This document shows, piece by piece, positions 6,536 to 21,243 of a DNA stretch of 64,000 bases. The stretch is from Flavobacterium sp. GTDB lineage: Bacteria; Bacteroidota; Bacteroidia; Flavobacteriales; Flavobacteriaceae. How positions within the stretch are numbered: the stretch's first letter is position 1; every line of letters starts with the position of its first letter. Location of the stretch: assembly GCA_008501705.1 (NCBI GenBank), contig QQUG01000022.1:922-64921 (forward strand), in the 5' to 3' direction. Made by a program: the position numbers and the translations under genes. Under the pieces are notes generated by a model. It did not search any database, was not told where the DNA came from, and saw nothing but the letters and a program-made list of their open reading frames with translations.

Positions 6536-7591
6536 TCATTCCTCTTCACTAAGCGCGTTCCACCCACGAGCAATAAGTGGTATTTTGGTATTTGCCCGGG
6601 TTATAAGATGCGCCCCTTCCTTTTGGGCTGTAATATGCCCGATCACAGTTAAATTTGGATTTCCTTTAATCTTTGGAAAATCCTCCTGTTTCATAGTAAA
6701 TAGCAATTCATAATCTTCCCCTCCGCTAAGGGCAATAGTTGTACTATCGAGGTTAAATTCTTCGCAGGTATTGATAACCTGGGGATCCAGGGGGATCTTA
6801 TCCTCGTATAAATTACAGCCAACCTTCGATTGTTCACATAAATGAAGGATCTCGGAGGACAAACCGTCACTTATATCTATCATTGCCGTGGGCAGCACAC
6901 CCAGATCGGCTAGTAATTTTGGGATGTCCTTCCTGGCTTCCGGTTTCAATTGTCGTTCTACCAAATACGTATAGGGTTCCAGATCAGGTTGTGCGTTAGG
7001 ATTAACTTCGAACACTTTCTTTTCTCTTTCTAAAACCTGAAGGCCAAGATAAGCAGCTCCAAGATCTCCGGTAACCACCAGCAGATCGTTCTCTGAAGCT
7101 CCGCTTCTGTAGGTGATGTTCTTCTTATCGGCCATCCCAATAGCGGTTATACTAATAACAAGTCCCGACGTGGAGGACGTGGTATCGCCTCCTACCACAT
7201 CGACATCGTAAATCCTGGCAGCAGTTTCTATCCCGCTGTACAGGGCTTCAACTGCCTCCACAGGAAACCGATTGGATAAAGCAATAGATATTGTAATTTG
7301 AGAAGCCTGAGCGTTCATAGCGTATATGTCGGATAGATTCACCACCACGGCCTTGTAGCCTAAGTGCTTAAGCGGCATATAGCTAAGATCAAAATGGACC
7401 CCTTCAATTAGCATATCGGTGGTTACAACGATCTCTTTCCCTTTGGCAGGACCAATCACAGCTGCATCATCTCCAATTCCTTTTACGGTAGATTGGTGAG
7501 TAATTTTAAAATTTCCGGTTAGGTGGGATATGAGCCCGAACTCACCTAGTTCAGAAATGGCGGTTCTTGATTGATCTTTTTCTTCAAACAT
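6536..7591 (-). CDS. thiL: Thiamine-monophosphate kinase
   Basis: LGEFGLI, IGDDAA, NLSDIYAM, GGDT, IDISDGLSSE and GGEDYEL PurM-fold motifs. Confidence 0.95.
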   Translation of the reverse strand: MFEEKDQSRTAISELGEFGLISHLTGNFKITHQSTVKGIGDDAAVIGPAKGKEIVVTTDMLIEGVHFDLSYMPLKHLGYKAVVVNLSDIYAMNAQASQITISIALSNRFPVEAVEALYSGIETAARIYDVDVVGGDTTSSTSGLVISITAIGMADKKNITYRSGASENDLLVVTGDLGAAYLGLQVLEREKKVFEVNPNAQPDLEPYTYLVERQLKPEARKDIPKLLADLGVLPTAMIDISDGLSSEILHLCEQSKVGCNLYEDKIPLDPQVINTCEEFNLDSTTIALSGGEDYELLFTMKQEDFPKIKGNPNLTVIGHITAQKEGAHLITRANTKIPLIARGWNALSEEE

Positions 7592-7634: not shown

Positions 7635-7667
7635 ATTTCAGAAATAATTGATATTTCAGAAATAATT
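7635..7667. repeat. Two perfect 15-nt direct repeats ATTTCAGAAATAATT (18-nt period) in the divergent promoter region
   Basis: Copies at 7635-7649 and 7653-7667; each contains the palindrome ATTTC-A-GAAAT. Confidence 0.8.
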
Positions 7668-7767
7668 CTTTTTGGTAAAACGCTGCTAAATGTCTGCATT
7701 TATAAAAGCCGACCCTGTTATTTTGCAGGCCAGAGCCATCTTAAGTACATTTAACAAATTTTCATTC

Positions 7768-9015
7768 ATGAAATTTATTATTGCAGTGTCTATTGCCGGT
7801 TTATTCCTCTTTGGATGCGCCGGGGATGATGGATTCCGCATCCCCGAAAATGCACAGATAACCAATGAGAATGACAGCATCCCGGCACCGGTTCAATATC
7901 CATTGTCTGCCCAATGTGTGAACGGCTCTGCCGGGGGATTTTCCTGCAGGGGCTATAACCTTATAAGCCGTGTAGAATTGGGCACGATGGGTGCCACGAC
8001 TGGGAACGATTGCTGGGGATGGACAGATCCAACCACGGGGATAGAATACGCCATAATGGGGCTGGACAGCGGAACCACTTTTATAGATATTTCAGATCCC
8101 TCTAATCCGGTGTACCTTGGGAAGGTACCCACACAGACTTCGGCGTCTTCCTGGCGGGATGTGAAAGTTTACAATAATCATGCTTTTATCGTGAGTGAGG
8201 CGGCTGGTCACGGGATGCAGGTTTTCGATCTTACCCGCTTGCGGGATGTTCCCAGTCCTCCAGCCAACTTTAGCGCCAATGCAGTGTATACAGGCTTCGG
8301 AAACGCCCACAATATCGTGATAAACGAAAACAGCGGATATGCGTATGCTGTGGGGACAAGCACTTACAATGGAGGACCTCATTTTATTAATATTCAAAAC
8401 CCTGTAGATCCGCAACCCGCCGGAGGCTATAGCATGGACTCATACAGCCATGATGCACAGGTGGTCACTTATAGTGGTCCCGACACAGACCATACAGGAT
8501 CTGAGATCCTCATTGGGAGCAATGAGAACGAGCTTGTTATTGTAGATATCACAGACAAATCCAACCCAGAGCGGATCGCAACTGTTTCTTACACGCAGAC
8601 CGGTTATACCCATCAAGGCTGGTTTACAGAAGACCAGCGCTACTTTATTGCAGGGGACGAATTGGATGAGCTCGCTTTTGGGTTTAATTCTCGTACCCTT
8701 ATCTTCGATCTCAGCGATCTGGAAAATCCCGTATTATCCGGTGAATATTACGGCACCACAACTGCGATCGATCATAATGGATATGTAAAAGGAAACATAT
8801 ATTATTTATCTAATTACACGAGAGGACTCACCGAGATTGATATTACGGGTATTGCAAATGGAGATTTATACGAATCGGGATATTTCGACACCTATCCTGA
8901 AACTGATGCGGCGTCTTTTAACGGTGCCTGGAGTGTATATCCCTACTTCTCAAGTGGGAATATCGTAATTAGCGACATTAATCTGGGCTTTTTTCTTGTA
9001 AAGCGAGGAAATTGA
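7768..9015 (+). CDS. Choice-of-anchor B family (LVIVD-repeat-like propeller) lipoprotein, copy 1
   Basis: The start was moved from the track's 7690 to ATG 7768, giving the signal MKFIIAVSIAGLFLFG-C followed by acidic AGDD. Family motifs: NDCWGWTD, WRDVK, AHNIVIN, ELVIVDITD, THQGW, DHNGYV, GAWSVYPYF. No T9SS CTD. Confidence 0.85.
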   Translation: MKFIIAVSIAGLFLFGCAGDDGFRIPENAQITNENDSIPAPVQYPLSAQCVNGSAGGFSCRGYNLISRVELGTMGATTGNDCWGWTDPTTGIEYAIMGLDSGTTFIDISDPSNPVYLGKVPTQTSASSWRDVKVYNNHAFIVSEAAGHGMQVFDLTRLRDVPSPPANFSANAVYTGFGNAHNIVINENSGYAYAVGTSTYNGGPHFINIQNPVDPQPAGGYSMDSYSHDAQVVTYSGPDTDHTGSEILIGSNENELVIVDITDKSNPERIATVSYTQTGYTHQGWFTEDQRYFIAGDELDELAFGFNSRTLIFDLSDLENPVLSGEYYGTTTAIDHNGYVKGNIYYLSNYTRGLTEIDITGIANGDLYESGYFDTYPETDAASFNGAWSVYPYFSSGNIVISDINLGFFLVKRGN

Positions 9016-9079
9016 TCATGAACCCTCTAGAAATGGGTTAATTAACATCTAAAACAGTTGGTCATATTACATATTTTTC

Positions 9080-9087
9080 TACTTTTG
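9080..9087 (+). promoter_or_regulatory. -7 element (TACTTTTG) upstream of copy 2, followed by an imperfect palindrome at 9094-9112
   Basis: Exact TAnnTTTG match; TTTCGAAAA-A-TTTTTGAAA lies just downstream. Confidence 0.4.
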
Positions 9088-9202
9088 GAATGATTTCGAA
9101 AAATTTTTGAAAGAAATTCAGATAAAATAGATTTTTAATACATTTTCAATAATCAATCGACGAGTTCCTCAAATCATAAACAACCCAAGTTAAACACAAC
9201 CT

Positions 9203-11119
9203 ATGAAAAATTTATTACTCCCTATCCTGCTTATTTTTTCTTTACCCATAATTGCACAAACTCCTTGTACAGGTGGAACTGCTGGACCGTACCCATGTAG
9301 TGGCTACGATCTGCAGTCTGAATTAAGCCTAGCCGCCTTAAATGCTAGTGGTGGTAATGATAGTTGGGGATGGACAGATTCTACAACCGGGAAAGAATAT
9401 GCCCTTATCGGTCTCAATAACGGTACTGCCTTTATCGATATATCCAATCCTACAAGTCCGGTATTTCTAGGCAAACTACCAACTCACACTTCTAATAGCA
9501 GTTGGAGAGATGTGAAAACCTATAATGACCATGCATTTATAGTGAGTGAAGCAAACGGCCACGGGATGCAGGTTTTCGACCTAACCAGGTTACGCAATGT
9601 GAGCAGCCCGCCCGAAACATTTACAGAGGATGCCCATTACTCAGGATTTGGAAGAGCTCATAACATAGTGATCAATGAAGATACAGGCTACGCCTATGCC
9701 GTAGGTACCTCCAGTTTTAATGGCGGGCCACATTTCATCAATATCCAGAATCCTACTAGTCCAACTGCGGCAGGAGGTTATTCCATGGATGATTACAGCC
9801 ATGATGCTCAGGTGGTGACTTACTGCGGACCGGACCATGATTATATAGGGAGAGAGATCCTGATAGGAAGTAATGAGAATGAGGTGATCATTGCCGATAT
9901 TACAAACAAATCTAATCCCGTGAGTATCTCAACAATTTCCTATACGAATGTAAATTATACACACCAGGGTTGGTTTACAGAAGATCAGCGATACTTTATA
10001 CTTGGCGATGAGTTGGATGAACAAAGTGTTGGGTTCAATACCCGTACGCTGGTGTTCGATTTTGAAGATCTTGACAATCCACAGTTACATACAACCTATA
10101 ATGGGCCAACGCCGGCCATAGATCACAATGGTTATGTAAAAGGAACCAAATACTATCTGGCAAACTACAGAGCCGGTATCCGCGTGATAGATATATCAAA
10201 TATCGCAAGTGGAACGATGACAGAAGAAGGTTACTTTGACAGTTACCCCAATAATGATAACGCAAACTTCAGCGGTGCCTGGAACGTATACCCCTACTTT
10301 GAGAGTGGCAATATTGTAATTAGCGATATAAATCGTGGATTTTTGCTGATAAAAGCTCAATCTACCGATCTGGTAGATCCCGTAGCCGTCTGCCAGGACA
10401 TCACAGTATCTCTGGACGCCAATGGAGAAGCAACGATAACCGGAGCAGATATTGACAATGGCTCGACCGATAATAGCGGGGTGGTTTATTTCAATATTTG
10501 TAACGAATATTTTGATTGTTCAAACCTGGGTGCCAATGTTGTTGAACTGGAAGTTTACGACGACTTCGGAAATAAAGACTATTGTAGCGCTACAGTAACA
10601 GTGGTAGATGATTTGGATCCACAGATTAACTGCCCGGGGAATTCTCAGGCGCTTGTAGACGCAGGACAAAACTATTATACCTTGCCGGACTATTTTGCCA
10701 CCGGTGAAGTAACCGCTACAGATAATTGTGCCTCAGGCCTAATACTTACGCAGAGTCCAGTGGCCGGAACTCAGTTACCCATCGGGACCCACACTATTAG
10801 TTTTGTAGCAGAAGACAGCAGTGGAAATACCAACAACTGTTCTTTCGATATTATCGTTACAGACGTATTATCTGCAGATGATATAGCCTTTGAAAATGGA
10901 TTAAGTATATATCCTAATCCGGCTTCAGAAATAATTAATATCAACTCAGCCAATAGATCGATCCACAGAATAAGTATCGTTGACATTTCAGGAAAATTGG
11001 TTTTCGACACCAATAACCTGGATACATTATCTACTTCGGTTGATGTTTCTGCTTTCTCTAGAGGGATATATTTTGTTACGGTTAACAATAGTGTGACAAA
11101 AAAGATAATTAAGAGATAA
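9203..11119 (+). CDS. Choice-of-anchor B protein + two HYR-like Ig domains + T9SS type-A CTD, copy 2
   Basis: Signal peptide ending IIA-Q; the same propeller motifs; an insert with DPVAVCQDITV...ATVTVVD and DPQINCP...TDNC...CSFDIIV; C-terminal IYPNPA...GIYFV...KKIIK. Confidence 0.88.
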   Translation: MKNLLLPILLIFSLPIIAQTPCTGGTAGPYPCSGYDLQSELSLAALNASGGNDSWGWTDSTTGKEYALIGLNNGTAFIDISNPTSPVFLGKLPTHTSNSSWRDVKTYNDHAFIVSEANGHGMQVFDLTRLRNVSSPPETFTEDAHYSGFGRAHNIVINEDTGYAYAVGTSSFNGGPHFINIQNPTSPTAAGGYSMDDYSHDAQVVTYCGPDHDYIGREILIGSNENEVIIADITNKSNPVSISTISYTNVNYTHQGWFTEDQRYFILGDELDEQSVGFNTRTLVFDFEDLDNPQLHTTYNGPTPAIDHNGYVKGTKYYLANYRAGIRVIDISNIASGTMTEEGYFDSYPNNDNANFSGAWNVYPYFESGNIVISDINRGFLLIKAQSTDLVDPVAVCQDITVSLDANGEATITGADIDNGSTDNSGVVYFNICNEYFDCSNLGANVVELEVYDDFGNKDYCSATVTVVDDLDPQINCPGNSQALVDAGQNYYTLPDYFATGEVTATDNCASGLILTQSPVAGTQLPIGTHTISFVAEDSSGNTNNCSFDIIVTDVLSADDIAFENGLSIYPNPASEIININSANRSIHRISIVDISGKLVFDTNNLDTLSTSVDVSAFSRGIYFVTVNNSVTKKIIKR

Positions 11120-11173
11120 TTTGTAAGTACGGGAAAATTGGCGATCACGTACTTCAAGAACACTATAATAACT

Positions 11174-12586
11174 ATGTTAAGATTATTGTCGTGCTTTTTA
11201 GTACTGTGTAGCACCTGTGTCACAGCACAAACGCCGTGTAGTAATGGTACTGCAGCTGGTTTTCCATGTGCGGGATACGACCTTATCTCACAAATTCCAC
11301 TTTCTACTATGGGCTCCAGTCGTGCCAATGACAGCTGGGGTTGGACAGACCCCATGGACGGGAAGGAGTACGCTGTTATTTGCCTTAACGAAGCCACGGC
11401 ATTTATAGACATTTCAGATCCGCTCAACCCCGTTTATCTTGGGAAATTACCTAGCCAGGGAAGTTCCAGTACCTGGCGAGACGCAAAAACCTATAACAAT
11501 TACGCTTTTATTGTAAGTGAAGATCCCGGACACGGTATGCAGGTTTTCGATCTAACACGCTTGCGAAATGTCGCTAATCCTCCTGTTACTTTTACTAACG
11601 ATGCTCATTTTGCCAGTTTTGGAGGGGCACATAACATCGTGATCAATGAAGATACCGGTTTTGCGTATGCCGTTGGCACCAGCCAATATAGTGGCGGTGC
11701 GTATTTTATAGATATTCAGGATCCTTTAAATCCTGTGCCGGCAGGAGGTTATGCCGGTGAGGGCTATACACACGACGCACAAGTGGTAATGTACAATGGC
11801 CCTGATACAGACTATATCGGACAGGAAATCATGATTGGCAGTAACGAAGACGAAATGGTAATCGTTGACGTTACAGATAAAGCAAATCCGCAGGCTATTT
11901 CAGCCATTTCCTATTCTAACGTTTCTTATACCCACCAAGGTTGGTTCTCCGAGGATCAGCGATACTTTATCCTTGGTGACGAAACCGATGAGATTGATTT
12001 TGGCTTTAATTCCAGGACTTTGATATTCGATCTTTCAGATCTTGATAACCCACAGCTTCACTTCCAGTATTCCGGGCCCACAGGAGCAACAGATCACAAC
12101 GGTTATGTAAAAGGAGATAAATTCTACCTTGCTAATAACGCCGCAGGTTTACGGGTGATCGATATCTCGGATATAGCAAATATGAATATGAATGAAGTTG
12201 GATATTTCGACACCTATGCTGTAAATAACAATTCGGGATTCAACGGATCCTGGAGTGTTTACCCCTACTTTGACAGCGGACATATTGTAATAAGTGACAG
12301 GGATCAGGGGTTTGTCCTGGTAAAACCATCGGTAATTCTCGGAATTGATGATGTTTTATCTTCGGAAGTAGCGGTATATCCGAATCCCGTATCGGACCTC
12401 CTTTCAATAAACTTGAATGATAAGGTCATTTCAGAAATAAAGATCATAGATATACTGGGTAAAACAATTTATTCTGAAGAAAAAATCGACACTAACAAAA
12501 AGACGATCGACCTCGGAGATATCACCCAGGGGGTCTATTTTGTGAGGATCAATAAAACTATTGTAAAGAAAATTATTAAAACCTAA
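11174..12586 (+). CDS. Choice-of-anchor B protein + T9SS type-A CTD, copy 3
   Basis: The start was moved to ATG 11174 (MLRLLSCFLVLCSTCVTA-Q signal). Family motifs are present, with the CTD VYPNPV...GVYFVRI...KKIIK. Confidence 0.88.
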   Translation: MLRLLSCFLVLCSTCVTAQTPCSNGTAAGFPCAGYDLISQIPLSTMGSSRANDSWGWTDPMDGKEYAVICLNEATAFIDISDPLNPVYLGKLPSQGSSSTWRDAKTYNNYAFIVSEDPGHGMQVFDLTRLRNVANPPVTFTNDAHFASFGGAHNIVINEDTGFAYAVGTSQYSGGAYFIDIQDPLNPVPAGGYAGEGYTHDAQVVMYNGPDTDYIGQEIMIGSNEDEMVIVDVTDKANPQAISAISYSNVSYTHQGWFSEDQRYFILGDETDEIDFGFNSRTLIFDLSDLDNPQLHFQYSGPTGATDHNGYVKGDKFYLANNAAGLRVIDISDIANMNMNEVGYFDTYAVNNNSGFNGSWSVYPYFDSGHIVISDRDQGFVLVKPSVILGIDDVLSSEVAVYPNPVSDLLSINLNDKVISEIKIIDILGKTIYSEEKIDTNKKTIDLGDITQGVYFVRINKTIVKKIIKT

Positions 12587-12666
12587 TTAAACCTAAGAAA
12601 CACGATGATATCAGTGGGCACGCTTTTTAATTGACAGCAGTTCTGTCTGTAGTGCCGTAATATTCG

Positions 12667-12674
12667 TATTTTTG
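12667..12674 (+). promoter_or_regulatory. -7 element (TATTTTTG), an internal promoter before copy 4
   Basis: Exact TAnnTTTG match 22 nt upstream of ATG 12697, in a 110-nt gap. Confidence 0.55.
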
Positions 12675-12696
12675 TGTTATTGCTAATAAATTTGTC

Positions 12697-14112
12697 ATGA
12701 TAAAGAAACTACTCCTGTTCGGATTATCAATATTCGGCACCCTGGCATTAGCTCAAACTCCATGTGAAAGTGGTATGGCGGGATCTTTTCCCTGTAATGG
12801 TTACGACCTCTTATCAACTTTCACACTTGGTGAACTGGGTGGCTCCTCCGGAAATGATTCCTGGGGCTGGACAGATCCTCAAAACGGAAAAGAATACGCC
12901 ATAACCGGTGTAGATAACGGAACAGTATTTATAGACATTACAGACCCCGTTAACCCGATAATCCTTGGGAAACTACTGGGGCATGGTAATTCTTCCAGCC
13001 TATGGCGCGATGTAAAAGTGTATAATAATTATGCTTTTATGGTAAGTGAGGCGGGTGGCCACGGGATGCAAATATTCGATCTTACACGATTGAGATCGGT
13101 AAGCAGCCCTCCCGAAAACTTTACGGAGGATGCATATTTTAGTGGCTTCGGAAGTGCCCATAATGTGGTAATAAACGAAACATCCGGCTATGCATATGGC
13201 GTAGGTACCAGTCAATTTGGCGGCGGAGCTGTTTTTGTAAACATTCAAGATCCACTAAACCCTGTGGCTGAAGGTGGATATGCCGGAAGCGGTTATACTC
13301 ATGACGCCCAGGTAGTAACATATAACGGTCCCGACACCGATTATACAGGGAGCGAGATATACATTGGCTGTAATACCGATGAAGTGGTAATTGTAGATGT
13401 GACCGATAAGTCCAATCCTCAACTTATCTCAACTATTGGCTACGCCAACATAGGCTATACCCACCAGGGATGGCTTACTGAAGATCAAACCTATTTTATT
13501 GCCGGGGATGAATTTGACGAATCTAATGTTGGGTTTAACACCCGTTCTATAGTTTTCGATTTTACCGATCTGGATAATCCACAATTCCACATGGAATATT
13601 TTGGACCCACTCCTGCCATAGACCACAATGGATATGTAAAAGGAGACAGGTTTTATCTTGCCAATTACACTGCAGGATTCCGCGTAGTGGATATAAGCGA
13701 TATTGCCAATGGGAATATGACAGAAATAGGGTATTTCGACACCCACCCTGCAAATCAGAATGTTTCTTACAACGGCGCTTGGAACGTATATCCGTATTTC
13801 CCTAGTGGAAACATAATTGTAAGTAATATCGACGGTGGTTTTTTTGTGCTGAGAGATCAAACGCTGGGAACGGAACCCGTAGCGAGTACGAATTTTGCTT
13901 TATCCCCTAACCCTGCTTCAGACATCCTGATGGTACATTCGGATGTTAGCGGGATACAATCAATAGAAATTACGAATATGCTGGGCCAGCAAGTTCTGCA
14001 ATTCGATTACAATAATACCCACAATGAACGCATAGATATCTCCGGATTAACCTCCGGTTTGTATCTGGTAAAAATTAATAACAACACCGTAAAAAGACTT
14101 ATAGTAAAGTAG
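12697..14112 (+). CDS. Choice-of-anchor B protein + T9SS type-A CTD, copy 4
   Basis: Signal peptide ending ALA-Q; family motifs; CTD LSPNPA...GLYLVKI...KRLIVK. Confidence 0.88.
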   Translation: MIKKLLLFGLSIFGTLALAQTPCESGMAGSFPCNGYDLLSTFTLGELGGSSGNDSWGWTDPQNGKEYAITGVDNGTVFIDITDPVNPIILGKLLGHGNSSSLWRDVKVYNNYAFMVSEAGGHGMQIFDLTRLRSVSSPPENFTEDAYFSGFGSAHNVVINETSGYAYGVGTSQFGGGAVFVNIQDPLNPVAEGGYAGSGYTHDAQVVTYNGPDTDYTGSEIYIGCNTDEVVIVDVTDKSNPQLISTIGYANIGYTHQGWLTEDQTYFIAGDEFDESNVGFNTRSIVFDFTDLDNPQFHMEYFGPTPAIDHNGYVKGDRFYLANYTAGFRVVDISDIANGNMTEIGYFDTHPANQNVSYNGAWNVYPYFPSGNIIVSNIDGGFFVLRDQTLGTEPVASTNFALSPNPASDILMVHSDVSGIQSIEITNMLGQQVLQFDYNNTHNERIDISGLTSGLYLVKINNNTVKRLIVK

Positions 14113-14134
14113 ACGGTAAAACAACAATCAAAAA

Positions 14135-15541
14135 ATGAAGAAAATAGTTACTTTAATAACCGTACTGGTTAGCTCGATGATGATAGCACAGGTACCATGT
14201 TCCGGGGGTTCGGCAGCTGGTTTCCCATGTTCTAATTTTACACTTCAGGGGCAGATCACCCTTGCCGCCATGGGCGCCGGAGGAGGAAACGATTCCTGGG
14301 GATGGACAGACCCTCAGGATGGTAAAGAATACGCCATCGTTGGCCTAAACAATGGAACCGCATTTATCGATATATCAGATCCGGTTGACCCTCAATATCT
14401 TGGTAAACTTCCAACGCACTCGAGTCCGAGTACCTGGAGAGATGTAAAAGTATATAATAATCATGCCTTTGTGGTAAGTGAAGCAGGCGGACACGGAATG
14501 CAGGTATTCGACCTTACCCGCTTACGCAATGTCACCAACCCTCCCGAAACGTTTACTGAAGATGCACATTACGGTAACTTTGGCAGTGCCCATAATATCG
14601 TTATTAATGAAGACACGGGCTACGCGTATGCTGTGGGCACCGATCTGTATAACGGGGGGCCACATTTCATAAATATCCAAGATCCATTAAACCCAACCGA
14701 TGAAGGCGGATATGCTTTAGACGGTTATAGTCATGACGCTCAGGTTGTGTTGTATAACGGGCCCGACACCAGCTATAATGGAAAAGAGATCCTTATCGGA
14801 AGTAACGAGAACGCAGTAGTGATCGTAGATATTACCGACAAAGGAAATCCTCAACCCATTTCTTCTACTAATTACTCCAATGTTGGATATACCCATCAGG
14901 GGTGGTTCACAGAAGATATGAAGTATTTCATCGTAGGAGACGAATTGGACGAATTTAGTGTAGGTTTCAACACCCGTACCCTGGTATTCGATTTTACCGA
15001 TCTTGACAATCCTCAATTAGATTTTGAGTATTTCGGTACTACTTCGGCGGTAGACCACAATGGTTATGTGGTAGGTGACCGATTCTATATGGCCAGCTAC
15101 TCTGCAGGAATGCGAGTTCTGGATATAAGCAATATAGAAAGCGGAAGTATGTCTGAATACGGATATTTTGACACCTTCCCAAGTAATAATAATGCAAGTT
15201 TCGACGGATCCTGGAATGTCTACCCCTTCTTTGCCAGTGGAAACATTGTGATAAGTGGTGATTTTGGTTTCACCCTGGTGCGTGACGAAAACCTTAGTGC
15301 TCCAGATTTTAGTAATTCGGATTTTTCCATCTTTCCTAATCCGGCTAACAATGTACTAAATATCGCCTCTAAGAACGCCCCAATTGATACTGTCGCTATA
15401 TACAATGTACTAGGACAGCAAGTAAATCGTTATGATTTTGCCGACAGTCTTTCAGAAACAATAGATATTTCCAGTTTAAACGCCGGTTTATATATGGTTC
15501 AGATAAACAAATCAACTACTAAAAGATTGATTGTGAATTAA
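14135..15541 (+). CDS. Choice-of-anchor B protein + T9SS type-A CTD, copy 5
   Basis: Signal peptide ending MIA-Q; family motifs; CTD IFPNPA...GLYMVQI...KRLIVN. Confidence 0.88.
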   Translation: MKKIVTLITVLVSSMMIAQVPCSGGSAAGFPCSNFTLQGQITLAAMGAGGGNDSWGWTDPQDGKEYAIVGLNNGTAFIDISDPVDPQYLGKLPTHSSPSTWRDVKVYNNHAFVVSEAGGHGMQVFDLTRLRNVTNPPETFTEDAHYGNFGSAHNIVINEDTGYAYAVGTDLYNGGPHFINIQDPLNPTDEGGYALDGYSHDAQVVLYNGPDTSYNGKEILIGSNENAVVIVDITDKGNPQPISSTNYSNVGYTHQGWFTEDMKYFIVGDELDEFSVGFNTRTLVFDFTDLDNPQLDFEYFGTTSAVDHNGYVVGDRFYMASYSAGMRVLDISNIESGSMSEYGYFDTFPSNNNASFDGSWNVYPFFASGNIVISGDFGFTLVRDENLSAPDFSNSDFSIFPNPANNVLNIASKNAPIDTVAIYNVLGQQVNRYDFADSLSETIDISSLNAGLYMVQINKSTTKRLIVN

Positions 15542-15552
15542 ACTTAGAAACT

Positions 15553-16926
15553 ATGAAAAGATACTTAACCTACGCCCTCGCCATCATCTTCATGTGTGGC
15601 TTCCACGCCTGTAAGAAAGATGAAGGCACTGCCCCGCCCGATGGCACTACCGATGACGACAACCCACCGGTTGGCGGTAATTTTGAAGGTGTGATAGAAT
15701 ACGTTAAAACCTATGGAGGTAGCAACGAAGACGAGGCCGTGGATGTAGTCCAGGCAAACGACGGAGGCTATGTTATGGTAGGTACCACATCCAGTAACGA
15801 CGGTGATATTACAGATAAAACCACCACCGATCCGGATTATTGGGTATTAAAAGTAAATGCTGCCGGTGAAAAGCAATGGAGTAAAACCTACGGAGGAACA
15901 TCTCCGGATAGGGCTACAGGAATTGTAAAAACAACCGATGGGGGTTACATCCTCTCCGGCCATAGCCGCAGTAATGACGGAGATGTTGGTGGAAATGAAG
16001 GCTTTCACGATTACTGGATCGTTAAGATAAACAGCGTTGGTGATATACAATGGGAAACCAATTTTGGGTTTTCCGGAAGTGACCAGGCTCTTAATATCAT
16101 TCAAACTTCAGACGGTGGTTATTTCGCTACGGGATTCCTCGATGTTTCCGCTAGTGGCGGCATGGGTAACGATGGTCGTAACCCCGAACATGGTGTAGGA
16201 GAATACTGGGGAATCAAGATGGATGCCAATGGTAATAAGATTTGGCGACGCTACTTTGGTGGATCTAATAACGACCGTAGTTATGACGTAGTTCAGACCG
16301 ACGACGGAGGATTCCTTATGATAGGTGCGTCTGAAAGTGATGACTTCGACAAATTAGACCCTAAAGGAAGTTACGATTTCTGGGTGGTAAAAGTTAGTGC
16401 CGGGGGAGATAACGTATGGTCGAAGTCCTTTGGCGGTTCTGAAATAGATGTGGCATATGGTGTTACACAAACTACCGATGGAAATTATATGATCGTCGGA
16501 GATACAAGAAGTACAGACCAGGATGTCACCAATCCACTGGGAAATGCCGATCTGTGGGTAGTGAAATTCAATAAGAACAATGGCGCTATCATTTGGCAAA
16601 AGACCTATGGTGGAACCGAATTCGAATCGGCTCGCAGTGTGGAACGACTGCCAAACGGCACCTATCTGATCTCAGGATCAACACGTTCTGCAAACGGGGA
16701 TGTTTCAATGAATATTGGTCAAAATGACGCCTGGGTCCTCATCATCAATGAAAATGGTGAACTGCAGTATCAGAAAACTGCCGGAGGTACCAGCCTTGAT
16801 TTTGCCGAAGGTGCCATCCAAACTACAGATAATAAACTGATCGTTGTAGGAAACACCGAGAGTAACGATATAGATATCACGGTAAACCGTGGTATAAAAG
16901 ACCTTTTGCTGATAAAAGTTAAATAA
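15553..16926 (+). CDS. Lipoprotein with seven internal repeats (predicted 7-bladed beta-propeller)
   Basis: Lipobox FHA-C followed by acidic KKDEG..DDD. Seven units of W.K.(Y/F)GG...D.A..(V/I).QT.DG.Y...G.(T/S).S.D.D......D.W..K. Confidence 0.8.
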   Translation: MKRYLTYALAIIFMCGFHACKKDEGTAPPDGTTDDDNPPVGGNFEGVIEYVKTYGGSNEDEAVDVVQANDGGYVMVGTTSSNDGDITDKTTTDPDYWVLKVNAAGEKQWSKTYGGTSPDRATGIVKTTDGGYILSGHSRSNDGDVGGNEGFHDYWIVKINSVGDIQWETNFGFSGSDQALNIIQTSDGGYFATGFLDVSASGGMGNDGRNPEHGVGEYWGIKMDANGNKIWRRYFGGSNNDRSYDVVQTDDGGFLMIGASESDDFDKLDPKGSYDFWVVKVSAGGDNVWSKSFGGSEIDVAYGVTQTTDGNYMIVGDTRSTDQDVTNPLGNADLWVVKFNKNNGAIIWQKTYGGTEFESARSVERLPNGTYLISGSTRSANGDVSMNIGQNDAWVLIINENGELQYQKTAGGTSLDFAEGAIQTTDNKLIVVGNTESNDIDITVNRGIKDLLLIKVK

Positions 16927-16954
16927 GTAAGAAACCTTAAAAAACAATAAATTA

Positions 16955-17752
16955 ATGAAAAAAATTGTCCTAATGATTGTAGCTTCCGTTCTTCTTTTCG
17001 GATGCAACAATGATGATAATGACCCACAACCTACACCGAATGCTATGGTTGAATTTACATTTACACACAACTGGGATGGCGACGAAATTGAAAATTCAGA
17101 CTTCGACCTATTGCAGTATTTTAATGCCAATGGAGAACAGATGAGCATTTCGAAGTTGGTCTATCTAATTTCTGATGTCACCTTTACAAATCTTTCTACC
17201 GCCGTGTCTTACGATGCAGGTGATTATAACCTGGTAAATGTGCGTGAAGGGACTAATCTAACCTTTACACCCGATATTGAGATCCCTGAAGGTGAATATC
17301 TCGTGACCTTCACTTTTGGATTTGACGATGAAGACAACCAGGATGGTATTTATCCGGATTTGAATTCGGCCGACGGAGGTTGGAATGTGCCAATGATGTT
17401 AGGAGGCGGATATCACTATATGCGTCTTGAAGGAAAATTTGTCGACAACACATCGGCCCAGGCAAATTACGCATACCACACTATTCGTGCGAACGACAAT
17501 ACCACTACCCCCATCACCCTTCAGGATACTTCCTTCGAAGTAAGCCTGGGGCAAGTAACGGTTGGAAGCAGTACCAATGTTGAGGTTAAAATGAATGTAG
17601 CCGAATGGTTTAGAAGTCCGAATCAATGGGACCTCAACCAATTAAACACGGTATTAATGCCAAATTTCGATGCCCAGATCATGATGTACGAAAATGGCTC
17701 TACATTTAATGGTTCTACCGGTGTATTCAGTAAAGGAACCGTAACACAATAA
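16955..17752 (+). CDS. mbnP: MbnP-family (putative copper-binding) lipoprotein
   Basis: Lipobox LFG-C then NNDDND; ISKLVYLISD and GGWNVPMMLGGGYHYMRLEG...YHT motifs; lies immediately upstream of a MauG/MbnH-like diheme gene, the canonical MbnPH arrangement. Confidence 0.7.
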   Translation: MKKIVLMIVASVLLFGCNNDDNDPQPTPNAMVEFTFTHNWDGDEIENSDFDLLQYFNANGEQMSISKLVYLISDVTFTNLSTAVSYDAGDYNLVNVREGTNLTFTPDIEIPEGEYLVTFTFGFDDEDNQDGIYPDLNSADGGWNVPMMLGGGYHYMRLEGKFVDNTSAQANYAYHTIRANDNTTTPITLQDTSFEVSLGQVTVGSSTNVEVKMNVAEWFRSPNQWDLNQLNTVLMPNFDAQIMMYENGSTFNGSTGVFSKGTVTQ

Positions 17753-17762
17753 ATAAAATAAT

Positions 17763-18839
17763 ATGAAACGCAGTTTAGCTTATATCGCACTATGTTGTCT
17801 CCTGGTATTTTCATGTACCACCGATCAGGATGACAGTATTGATGGGTATACGGCTACCCCACTGGAATTGAATATTCCACCTCTGTTTGCCGAAAAGATC
17901 CTTCCTCCGGTTATCCCGGAAAACAATCCGCAATCTGTTGAAGGCGTGGCCCTGGGTAGAAAGTTATTCTTCGATAAAAAGCTATCTGCAGATAATACCT
18001 TAGCCTGTGCCGGGTGTCACAGCCCGGCCAGTGCTTTTTCAGACCCGCGACAGTTTAGTGTGGGTATTGATGGAATGGCAGGCACGAGAAATTCCATGCC
18101 TTTATTCAACCTGGCCTGGAATTATAACGAACTTTTCTTTTGGGATGGTCGCGCAGCATCGATTGAAAACCAGGCTTTATTTCCTGTTATCGATCCTATC
18201 GAAATGCACAATACCTGGCCTGAGGCTGTCAATACTTTACAGGCAGACCCCGAATATCCTGCCTTGTTTGAAGCTGCCTTCGGAACCCAAAACATAGACT
18301 CGACCCTGGTAACCAAGGCCATCGCACAGTTTGTTAGAACACTTATTTCGGGAAATTCTAAATTTGACAGGTATCTGGCAGGCACAGAACAATTAACCCA
18401 ATCTGAACTGAACGGACTAAATGTTTTCCTGGATGAAAATAGGGGTGATTGTTTTCACTGCCACGGAAATCCTAATAACCCGCTGTGGACAGACAATATC
18501 TTCCATAACAATGGTCTGGATGAAACACATATAGATCGCGGTCGTGGTATAGTAACCGGAGATCCCAGAGAATTTGGCACCTTTAAAACTCCAAGCCTGC
18601 GAAATCTTGCGTACACCGCACCATATATGCACGATGGTAGATTTAACACCCTTGATGAGGTGATCGACCATTATAGTGAGGGACTTGTTTATTCTGAAAC
18701 TATAGATCCCCTGATGAAAAAAGTAGACGAAGGAGGTGTGGGACTCACGCCAGAAGATAAAGCCGATTTAAAGGCCTTTCTACTTTCTTTATCAGATCCC
18801 AGCTTTATTTCCAATCCCGATTTCCAGGATCCAAACTAA
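17763..18839 (+). CDS. mbnH: Diheme cytochrome c peroxidase superfamily lipoprotein, MbnH/MauG-like
   Basis: Two CxxCH motifs (CAGCH 18006-18020, CFHCH 18450-18464); LGRKLFFD, FFWDGRA, FKTPSLRN and APYMHDG...EVIDHY (Tyr at the distal ligand position); lipobox VFS-C. Confidence 0.82.
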   Translation: MKRSLAYIALCCLLVFSCTTDQDDSIDGYTATPLELNIPPLFAEKILPPVIPENNPQSVEGVALGRKLFFDKKLSADNTLACAGCHSPASAFSDPRQFSVGIDGMAGTRNSMPLFNLAWNYNELFFWDGRAASIENQALFPVIDPIEMHNTWPEAVNTLQADPEYPALFEAAFGTQNIDSTLVTKAIAQFVRTLISGNSKFDRYLAGTEQLTQSELNGLNVFLDENRGDCFHCHGNPNNPLWTDNIFHNNGLDETHIDRGRGIVTGDPREFGTFKTPSLRNLAYTAPYMHDGRFNTLDEVIDHYSEGLVYSETIDPLMKKVDEGGVGLTPEDKADLKAFLLSLSDPSFISNPDFQDPN

Positions 18840-18957
18840 GGCCGTTAAATATCTGCCGGAAACCCCTTAAAACCCTAAGGCTGTTAATTATTACTTAAAA
18901 CTATCCAGCCATAGGCGTAAATTGTATTTCCTCTATGGTTAAAAACGGCTTTTAACG

Positions 18958-18991
18958 TATATTTGCAACCTAATTTAGAATTAATCTATTT
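18958..18991 (+). promoter_or_regulatory. suf promoter: -7 element TATATTTG (18958-18965) and a downstream palindromic operator-like box ATTTAGA-N5-TCTATTT (18973-18991)
   Basis: Exact TAnnTTTG match. The TAGA-N5-TCTA core is a perfect inverted repeat between the promoter and the sufA start. Confidence 0.5.
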
Positions 18992-18995
18992 AGAG

Positions 18996-19325
18996 ATGAT
19001 CAAAGTAAGCGAACAAGCTAAAAGCAAAATTTCCGAGCTGATGACAGACGAAGGTTTTGCTGTTGACCAGGATTTTGTGCGTGTTGGAGTAAAGAGCGGA
19101 GGATGTTCGGGCCTGTCTTATGAGCTAACTTTCGATAAAAAATTAGGAGACGAGGATAAGATGTTCGAAGATACACCCGTAAAGATCGTAGTGGATAAGA
19201 AGAGCTTTCTCTACCTGGTAGGAACCACCCTGGAATACAGTGGTGGTCTTAATGGAAAGGGATTTGTCTTTAACAATCCAAATGCTAACAGAACTTGCGG
19301 ATGCGGAGAGAGTTTCTCTTTATAA
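18996..19325 (+). CDS. sufA: A-type Fe-S carrier (IscA/SufA/HesB family)
   Basis: [12 protein letters not shown] and RTCGCGESF motifs; the start was moved to ATG 18996. Confidence 0.93.
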
Positions 19326-20808: not shown

Positions 20809-21243
20809 ATGAAAAAAATCTTTTATTTATTACTGATCGCAACTATTACATTCTCTTGTAATAATTCTGAAAAGAAAAACGGTGAGAACCCGGATGATTC
20901 TACCGAAGTCTCCGCACAAGGCGGCGGTAGTGTAGTGGACGTAAGAATGCCTGTTTACAGAGGTGAGATTATCTTTACCGATGAAGCAGCCGTGCTGAAA
21001 GGTAAAAACTTTGTTTACGGGGTGGTAATAGATACGGTTGCCCGTGAATTGGCCGCCAGAGTAGCACCGATCAAGAAGGATGAGTTCGATATGGTCCCGG
21101 TGGTAGTATCGGGCATAGTTTCACCCAATCCTGCCCTCTCTGAAGGTGAAGAAGGCTGGGAGGAAGTGATCACCATAAAAAATATACTGAATGTGAGCGC
21201 GAAGCCCGCAGAGGCAGATGTTAAAATTGAAGACAATAACTAA
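20809..21243 (+). CDS. Uncharacterized lipoprotein within the suf operon (NlpE C-terminal OB-like)
   Basis: Lipobox TFS-C; YRGEIIFTDEAAVL...VPVVVSG...EG resembles the NlpE_C pattern, judged by eye. Confidence 0.65.
   Translation: MKKIFYLLLIATITFSCNNSEKKNGENPDDSTEVSAQGGGSVVDVRMPVYRGEIIFTDEAAVLKGKNFVYGVVIDTVARELAARVAPIKKDEFDMVPVVVSGIVSPNPALSEGEEGWEEVITIKNILNVSAKPAEADVKIEDNN

Follow-up and report, generated by a model that had tools for sequence, protein, structure and literature searches.

A 64,000-nucleotide stretch of DNA from a marine flavobacterium (Flavobacterium sp., assembly GCA_008501705.1, contig QQUG01000022.1, positions 922 to 64,921; this whole stretch is hereafter the window) carries on its + strand a cluster of eight co-directional genes (7768-18839), all of whose products are predicted to be exported. 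The cluster runs from five propellers of the choice-of-anchor-B (CAB) family, CAB1 to CAB5, through the repeat propeller lipoprotein LIPO to an MbnP-like lipoprotein and an MbnH-like di-haem enzyme, and is located between thiL and sufA-sufB. We found that the cluster builds, in a lineage-specific way, on an envelope module of only two genes, CAB-LIPO. One subclade of the Flavobacteriaceae has added a divergent MbnP/MbnH pair behind LIPO and has split CAB into old paralogue lines that differ in their anchors, which take the form of a lipoprotein anchor, of a C-terminal domain of the type IX secretion system (T9SS), or of that domain combined with an HYR domain; the source genome keeps five. We give about even chances to the view that MbnP/MbnH constitute an accessory module of the CAB-LIPO surface system, in which MbnH matures its neighbour MbnP.

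Domain architecture and predicted anchoring

The open reading frames and profile matches bear out an initial annotation of this DNA, which had described eight co-directional genes for five CABs, a 7-repeat lipoprotein and an MbnP/MbnH-like pair. All five CABs match TIGR04312 at 549-585 bits (cut-off 100) over positions 1-363/364 of its 364, and all of them also match the LVIVD repeat. CAB1 (7768-9015; TIGR04312, 563.7 bits) is a lipoprotein-type 7-bladed propeller. In CAB2 (9203-11119; 584.6 bits), a signal peptide and the propeller are followed by an HYR domain (PF02494, 2.5e-13) and a T9SS type-A C-terminal domain (PF18962, 4.7e-16). CAB3 (11174-12586; 551.6 bits; PF18962, 9e-15), CAB4 (12697-14112; 557.7 bits) and CAB5 (14135-15541; 549.4 bits) all combine a signal peptide, the propeller and a T9SS C-terminal domain. 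The reading frame of CAB1 opens at 7690, and we prefer the start at 7768, which gives a lipoprotein signal as in the orthologues; that of CAB3 opens at 11138, the called start being 11174.

The copies are mutually 62-70% identical in protein and 60-72% in DNA. An assembly artefact behind the five copies can be ruled out by this divergence and by the presence of the whole 11.6 kb on single contigs in two separate public runs, one of which comes from another strain that differs by 89 substitutions but has no indels. A recent amplification is likewise ruled out, because the paralogues fall in different old orthogroups common to other genera: CAB1 groups with the ~410-residue lipoprotein-type CABs of genomes G101 and G056 (96, starred), CAB2 is orthologous to the HYR-type proteins of 636-638 residues from G101, G096 and G083 (97, starred), CAB4 is sister to a 470-residue CAB of G101 (100, starred), and CAB5 groups with CABs of G075 and G104. 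The source genome keeps more of the old CAB lines than most genomes. By similarity of CAB sequence, its named relatives are Aureitalea, Aureisphaera galaxeae and Marixanthomonas ophiurae. A sixth CAB domain, outside the window (genome G000, contig C127:696-1823), opens a protein of 1070 residues, and at least nine further genera (G097, G101, G075, G083, G096, G099, G037, G104 and G006) encode similar CAB proteins of 1030-1150 residues at sites outside the thiL-suf locus. More generally, the CAB domain is a large uncharacterised family, with ~1,960 clusters at 50% identity (E <= 1e-30) and architectures reaching 2,800 residues. A literature search for "choice-of-anchor B" and TIGR04312 returned no mention of either, and the cluster itself is described in no paper that we found.

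LIPO (15553-16926) is a lipoprotein with seven SBBP-like repeats of ~58 residues, which form the second propeller of the module. It resembles the C-terminal propeller of CylK (1.2e-23) and SBBP surface proteins, including in the number of repeats, but lacks the N-terminal domain of CylK, and nothing in it hints at alkylation chemistry. Against the SBBP-repeat lipoprotein LipL53 family (NF047494) it scores 52 bits (E 4.5e-14), below the cut-off of 400, and is therefore not counted as a member.

The MbnP-like lipoprotein (16955-17752) belongs to a divergent subfamily. It clearly exceeds the gathering threshold of PF20243 (96.7 versus 27 bits) and has no match to TIGR04052 ("metallo-mystery pair four-Cys motif protein") at E <= 0.01. 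The four-Cys motif is absent, the only Cys being the lipid-anchor Cys17. In its AlphaFold2 model (predicted local distance difference test [pLDDT] score 91.3), the only PDB fold matches with E < 0.001 are six chains of 7L6G, at template-modelling (TM) scores of 0.51-0.57. A phmmer search of the protein against the PDB returned nothing, and the alignment to the solved protein was then obtained through the profile. In that alignment, W143-N-V stands in place of the WxW motif: of 31 homologues, at least 90% keep the first Trp, whereas Val takes the place of the second. H175 is invariant, and an LGGGYH[YF] motif is specific to the CAB-linked subfamily.

The MbnH-like di-haem lipoprotein (17763-18839; PF03150, 1e-58) finds its best PDB match in MbnH itself (6E1C, 5e-55). 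It has two CxxCH motifs, CAGCH at residue 82 and CFHCH at residue 230. Tyr304, aligned with the Tyr of 6E1C, is present in all 41 sequences compared and Trp127 in 40 of the 41. By analogy with MauG, we take Tyr304 to be a haem ligand. The best NCBIfam model is TIGR04039, even though the score of 261.8 bits is below its cut-off of 362.85; the model for MauG proper, TIGR03791, gives 194.8 bits against a cut-off of 443.85. Because both CxxCH motifs, Tyr304 and Trp127 are kept, we assign the predicted enzyme to the MauG type and not the peroxidase type, with two CxxCH motifs, Tyr in place of the Met ligand and an inter-haem Trp. Together with the match of its neighbour to the 7L6G fold, these features uphold the MbnP fold and the MauG-type character that the initial annotation had recognised. 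An MbnH-type gene is also found elsewhere in a CAB-LIPO genome that has no Pfam-detectable MbnP (G024:C1:3971518-3972450); its 251 bits with TIGR04039 are as high as the scores of the linked genes.

The closest characterised counterpart is the MbnP/MbnH pair of methanobactin operons (Methylosinus trichosporium OB3b; 7L6G, 6E1C), in which MbnH converts Trp174 in the WxW motif of MbnP to kynurenine for copper binding, the copper being held by His, Met, water and the kynurenine (review, PMC11951088). The two pairs are alike in the adjacency of the genes and their order, P before H, in the MbnP fold, in MbnH as the best match, and in the two CxxCH motifs, the aligned Tyr, the first Trp of WxW and the conserved His. 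They differ in that both proteins of the flavobacterial pair are lipoproteins, and in that its MbnP has gained the LGGGYH motif and has neither the four Cys nor the Met before the Trp nor the second Trp. Moreover, unlike in the OB3b operon, no TonB transporter or methanobactin gene lies nearby, and two propeller genes precede the pair.

The anchors of the eight products, for which signal peptides and lipoboxes were judged from sequence and a regular expression rather than by a dedicated predictor, are of two kinds. CAB1 has an LFGC lipobox with an acidic stretch after the Cys and no T9SS domain. CAB2 to CAB5 have an N-terminal signal peptide and a T9SS type-A domain (TIGR04183/PF18962) scoring 45-50 bits against a cut-off of 23, and this tail matches the solved C-terminal domains 8GLK and 8GLJ. 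The same two anchor types, lipobox and T9SS, are seen among the CABs of relatives. Bacteroidota use acidic stretches after the lipobox Cys as a signal for surface export of lipoproteins. Such acidic residues are present in all four lipoproteins (CAB1, LIPO, MbnP and MbnH), and they recur in orthologues of LIPO (21/26), MbnP (16/17) and MbnH (9/12). The initial annotation's statement that every product is exported thus agrees with the predicted signals, and the eight proteins may come together on the surface of the cell.

Linkage and history within the Flavobacteriaceae and beyond

We surveyed one genome per genus from 121 genera of Flavobacteriaceae, the source genome included. MbnP is present in 55 of these genera, CAB in 69 and both in 42. 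In 41 of the 42, MbnP is preceded on its own strand by a CAB gene at a distance of 1.4-2.5 kb; the one exception is an assembly in 610 contigs. The remaining 27 of the 69 genera with CAB are without MbnP. In a comparison of gene order across 40 flavobacterial loci (L001-L040), CAB-LIPO is almost always flanked by a divergent thiL on one side and by sufA-sufB-sufC-sufD-sufS-sufE on the other, with thiL (cluster f5) directly upstream of CAB in most. LIPO is the invariable partner of CAB in this family: it follows directly 3' of CAB in 39 of the 40 loci, at a median gap of 3 nt, and in the fortieth the contig ends at CAB. Where MbnP-MbnH are present, they follow LIPO and precede sufA, and the median gaps are 8 nt ahead of MbnP and 6 nt ahead of MbnH.

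In a tree of LIPO and SufB, all loci that carry MbnP/MbnH group together (97, starred), requiring a single change; therefore, the 41 linkages represent one inherited arrangement and not independent events. No member of this clade among the 21 sampled (20 loci and the source locus) has lost or moved the pair. The tree of MbnH adds a further element to this history, in that 19 linked MbnH proteins fall in a starred clade of their own and those of G019 and G115 fall in another starred clade together with unlinked flavobacterial MbnH proteins. The existence of two separate linked clades means that the slot behind CAB-LIPO received a pair on at least two occasions. Indeed, in the corresponding loci (L025 of G019 and L040 of G115), the slot is filled not by the CAB-linked subfamily but by a canonical flavobacterial pair that keeps the M-x-W-S-W motif. 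Five genomes hold a canonical MbnP elsewhere in addition to the CAB-linked one, which marks the CAB-linked pair as a specialised paralogue. The canonical flavobacterial pairs of G001 and G114 adjoin an outer-membrane barrel, and that of G114 is also near TonB receptors. The second filling of the slot and the canonical copies elsewhere argue that, in this subclade, the tie is a genuine functional one.

Outside the Flavobacteriaceae, we examined 100 CAB loci with TIGR04312 members, of which 20 come from other Bacteroidota families and 80 from a scan of genome contigs with the CAB profile. None of the former has LIPO or MbnP/MbnH within ~8 kb, and among the latter (Rhodothermales, Balneolales, Gemmatimonadota and Acidobacteriota) a single locus has the pair, 7.5 kb off and on the opposite strand, giving 1/100 within ~8-10 kb. 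Conversely, none of 20 Bacteroidota MbnP/MbnH loci, 17 of them from outside the family, has CAB or LIPO nearby. Even within the family, 14 of 25 CAB-LIPO genomes without MbnP have no match to the cytochrome c peroxidase (CCP)/MauG family anywhere in the genome (E <= 1e-10). Hence, a general rule by which the propeller co-occurs with MbnP/MbnH everywhere does not hold (27/69; 14/25; 1/100). The linkage put forward in the initial annotation stands for the Flavobacteriaceae, as one inherited arrangement, and does not extend to the loci sampled beyond them. What does recur is the pairing of CAB with a second propeller, although in other lineages this partner does not belong to the family of the flavobacterial LIPO: many loci from Balneolales, Rhodothermales and Gemmatimonadota have a CAB of ~800 residues followed by a YVTN/lactonase-type 7-bladed propeller of ~365 residues and then by an FG-GAP protein of 600-740 residues (L085, L086, L100, L104, L109-L111, L122, L128, L133, L143 and others).

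These histories bear on an alternative in which the genes are neighbours by descent only, MbnP-MbnH having been inserted once because the interval from LIPO to the suf promoter tolerated it, being co-transcribed as a mere convenience and performing an unrelated job of their own, such as copper handling or peroxide use. Such an account would be in keeping with the single change on the locus tree, with the synteny of the whole thiL-suf neighbourhood, through which gene order is inherited, with the lack of linkage outside the family and with the many unrelated contexts in which Bacteroidota MbnP/MbnH pairs occur elsewhere. It does not readily accommodate the retention of the pair in every sampled clade member with median gaps still at 6-8 nt, or the coexistence of the linked subfamily with a canonical pair in five genomes, and chance does not readily explain why the slot in G019 and G115 holds a pair from a different MbnH clade. 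We consider it unlikely, if a serious contender.

Conserved residues of CAB and the proposed role of MbnP/MbnH

The AlphaFold2 model of CAB5 (pLDDT 84.5) has seven blades and a β-sandwich tail, which is the C-terminal domain. A structural check of this kind had been proposed with the initial annotation, and it yields a confidently predicted 7-bladed propeller in which four His open the innermost strands of blades 3-6. Searches of the PDB with the protein and with the CAB profile found no sequence relative of the propeller, the only matches being to the T9SS tail. Foldseek with the model retrieves generic propellers, with an archaeal S-layer YVTN propeller as the top match. Among the PDB matches listed, the highest TM-score is that of Sb-PTE (5HRM; 0.56, E 1.7e-11), another 7-bladed propeller but one with a sequence identity of only 13-14%. 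We take Sb-PTE to have an axial binuclear metal centre with His and carboxylate ligands contributed by different blades.

When conservation is mapped onto the strands of the model, the innermost strands of blades 3 to 6 each begin with a conserved His: H153, H200, H254 and H308 (CAB5 numbering). At least 97% conservation in 77 sequences is seen for these four His and for W55, W57, W101, R102, D201, Q255, W257, D269-E270-x-D272-E273, D307, N309, D346 and W360, most of them being present in all. W55, W57, W360, D269, D272, D307, N309 and the four His are invariant in the 77 sequences and again in 154 domains. The four His are kept in 152-155 of 155 aligned sequences, comprising these 154 domains and CAB5, from clusters that are less than 50% identical to each other. 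Going by propeller topology, the conserved residues would ring the mouth of the central channel. This invariance points to an axial metal or active site in CAB. The site, moreover, appears not to depend on MbnH, because the same invariance holds in lineages without any MauG-type enzyme.

It could instead be argued, as is commonly supposed for LVIVD-repeat proteins, that the CABs are non-catalytic surface adhesins or binding proteins. The conserved residues would then hold a ligand or an ion of structural importance, and MbnP/MbnH would be irrelevant to the CABs. The HYR domain of CAB2, the surface anchors, the many multidomain architectures of up to 2,800 residues, the archaeal S-layer propeller as top fold match and a literature that treats LVIVD proteins as surface-interaction modules would all suit such a role. 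However, the near-invariance of the four His and of D, E, N and W residues, seen across clusters that share less than 50% identity, suits an active or metal site better than the surface of an adhesin, and adhesin paralogues usually diverge at the binding face. We regard this as improbable.

A different role is suggested by the mtoX-SCO1/senC-mauG operon of methanethiol oxidase (SBP56; Eyice et al. 2018, PMC5739008), in which, as here, an exported propeller with four conserved His and conserved Trp is followed by a metal-handling protein and then by a MauG-like di-haem enzyme. The initial annotation had drawn on this parallel in proposing that the CAB propellers may be metal-dependent oxidases, possibly with copper, or other metalloenzymes, matured or loaded by the adjacent pair. 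The parallel is apt in form, and the near-invariant axial His, Asp and Trp do favour a metal-dependent propeller, but no sign of a copper or oxidase role for the CABs emerged from this analysis. The propeller is CAB and not SBP56: against the methanethiol oxidase family (NF052453, cut-off 650 bits; PF05694), CAB1 reaches only 15 bits (E 0.006, 67 residues) and falls outside it. The metal partner is MbnP and not SCO1, and the mtoX arrangement is conserved across many bacteria, whereas the linkage of CAB to a MauG-type enzyme is confined to one flavobacterial subclade. MauG and pre-methylamine dehydrogenase provide another parallel, with a Tyr-bearing di-haem enzyme of the same family that acts on the product of a neighbouring gene to give a Trp-derived cofactor. 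Unlike that system, there is no small tryptophan tryptophylquinone (TTQ) subunit here, and in methylamine dehydrogenase the modification falls on a chain other than the heavy propeller subunit.

Least probable is that the CABs, and perhaps LIPO, are copper or quinone-cofactor enzymes whose activity requires MbnH to oxidise their Trp or MbnP to load copper: the tight operon, the linkage in 41 of 42 genera, the twofold acquisition of the pair, the four near-invariant His and several invariant Trp of CAB and the resemblance to the methanethiol oxidase set (four His, Trp, a copper chaperone gene and mauG; PMC5739008) favour it, but the same His and Trp are invariant in the 27 of 69 flavobacterial genera without MbnP/MbnH, 14 of 25 such genomes are without a CCP/MauG gene, 99 of the 100 outside loci have no pair nearby, the SBP56 match is at 15 rather than 650 bits, and the known substrate of MbnH is MbnP (PMC11951088). 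Accordingly, the maturation idea of the initial annotation is only partly supported: maturation or loading by MbnP/MbnH as a property of the CAB family does not survive, and the analogy with methanethiol oxidase is to be corrected in that the propellers appear not to need a MauG-type enzyme.

In the accessory-module reading that we prefer, CAB would be a metal-dependent enzyme or a ligand-binding protein with its site at the mouth of the propeller axis, built from the four His, D201, D307, N309, D346, the GDExDE loop and a ring of Trp, and formed without any MauG-type enzyme. MbnH, with its two haems, Tyr and Trp127, would use peroxide to oxidise the neighbouring MbnP-fold lipoprotein and thereby create a metal site, probably for copper. 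The matured MbnP would then share a compartment with the propellers and assist them by supplying metal, by scavenging or as a redox partner, without being a prerequisite. By analogy with the known system, action of MbnH on MbnP would be the simplest reading of the pair.

Several points weigh against this accessory-module reading. Nothing was found that links MbnP physically to CAB or LIPO. Compared with the characterised protein, the MbnP-like protein is missing the Met that precedes the Trp by two residues, the second of the two Trp in WxW and all four Cys; it could bind a metal other than copper, or no metal at all, and copper is assumed for it by analogy only. The convergence of the four His on one site follows from propeller topology in the model, not from measured distances, and co-transcription is read from gene spacing only. 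Finally, the presence of the pair in a single clade means that its retention could partly be inertia.

A bolder proposal, speculative and with the chances well against it, is that CAB represents an undescribed family of extracytoplasmic metalloenzymes with a four-His, multi-carboxylate, Trp-lined axial centre, which in one flavobacterial subclade is fed or tuned at the cell surface by an MbnP of the kynurenine type that a lipoprotein MbnH has matured. If true, the operon would offer a handle on the chemistry of the whole CAB family, and its pair would be the first MbnP/MbnH for which a client is defined. MbnP/MbnH are widespread outside methanotrophs, and the divergent lipid-anchored pair described here, fixed behind two surface propellers and put there twice, offers a concrete candidate partner. 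The genera with and without MbnP/MbnH form a natural contrast.

Flanking genes and regulatory signals

The 3' part of the cluster is compact. As noted in the initial annotation, the gaps from CAB4 through CAB5, LIPO and MbnP to MbnH are 22, 11, 28 and 10 nt, and no terminator-like hairpin is found in them. Over the whole region, 17 terminators were found against 13.6 +/- 4.1 in shuffles, which is not above expectation. The Bacteroidetes -7 motif TAnnTTTG occurs at 9080, 12667, 12687 and 18958, at a density of 0.45/kb on this strand of the window; a sigma-70 promoter scan was dropped in its favour, as its hits were not above those in shuffles and its consensus is wrong for Bacteroidota. By motif match only, TACTTTTG (9080-9087) lies ahead of CAB2, and TATTTTTG at 12667 and TAAATTTG at 12687 (12667-12694) occupy the 110-nt gap before CAB4. 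The promoter previously proposed at 12667 therefore holds up as a motif match, and these two motifs are the candidate start of a CAB4-to-MbnH transcription unit. One metatranscriptome was checked for words of the locus and contained none, and an Rfam scan of the whole window gave no match.

Upstream, the cluster is bounded by thiL (thiamine-phosphate kinase; 6536-7591, - strand; TIGR01379, 5e-95). The thiL-CAB1 intergenic region contains an exact 15-nt direct repeat, ATTTCAGAAATAATT, at 7635-7649 and 7653-7667, 18 nt apart, which could be a regulator binding site. No obvious equivalent of the repeat is present upstream of CAB in 39 related loci, and no shared operator was seen there by eye.

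Downstream, the boundary is formed by sufA (18996-19325, + strand; PF01521, 3.7e-17), followed by sufB (SufB, NF008773, 911 bits), sufC and sufD. The median gap between MbnH and sufA is 154 nt, and since this gap carries a promoter block that is conserved with and without MbnP/MbnH, we treat suf as a separate unit; a common transcript with MbnH is unlikely. The -7-like motif TATATTTG (18958, + strand; motif match) lies in this suf promoter region. The region before sufA (18900-18995, and likewise in L001-L040) is strongly conserved across genera, with a block of the form cGTATATTTGca..CTAATTTAGAAt, ahead of which stands either a CCATAG...CTATGG palindrome or a TTATAATAATGTTAGG block. The conserved block is probably the suf promoter together with a regulator site. 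Between sufB and sufC lies an open reading frame of 144 residues (20809-21243), and reading frames in this slot recur in most related loci, belonging to clusters f7 (117-144 residues) and/or f13 (~290 residues).

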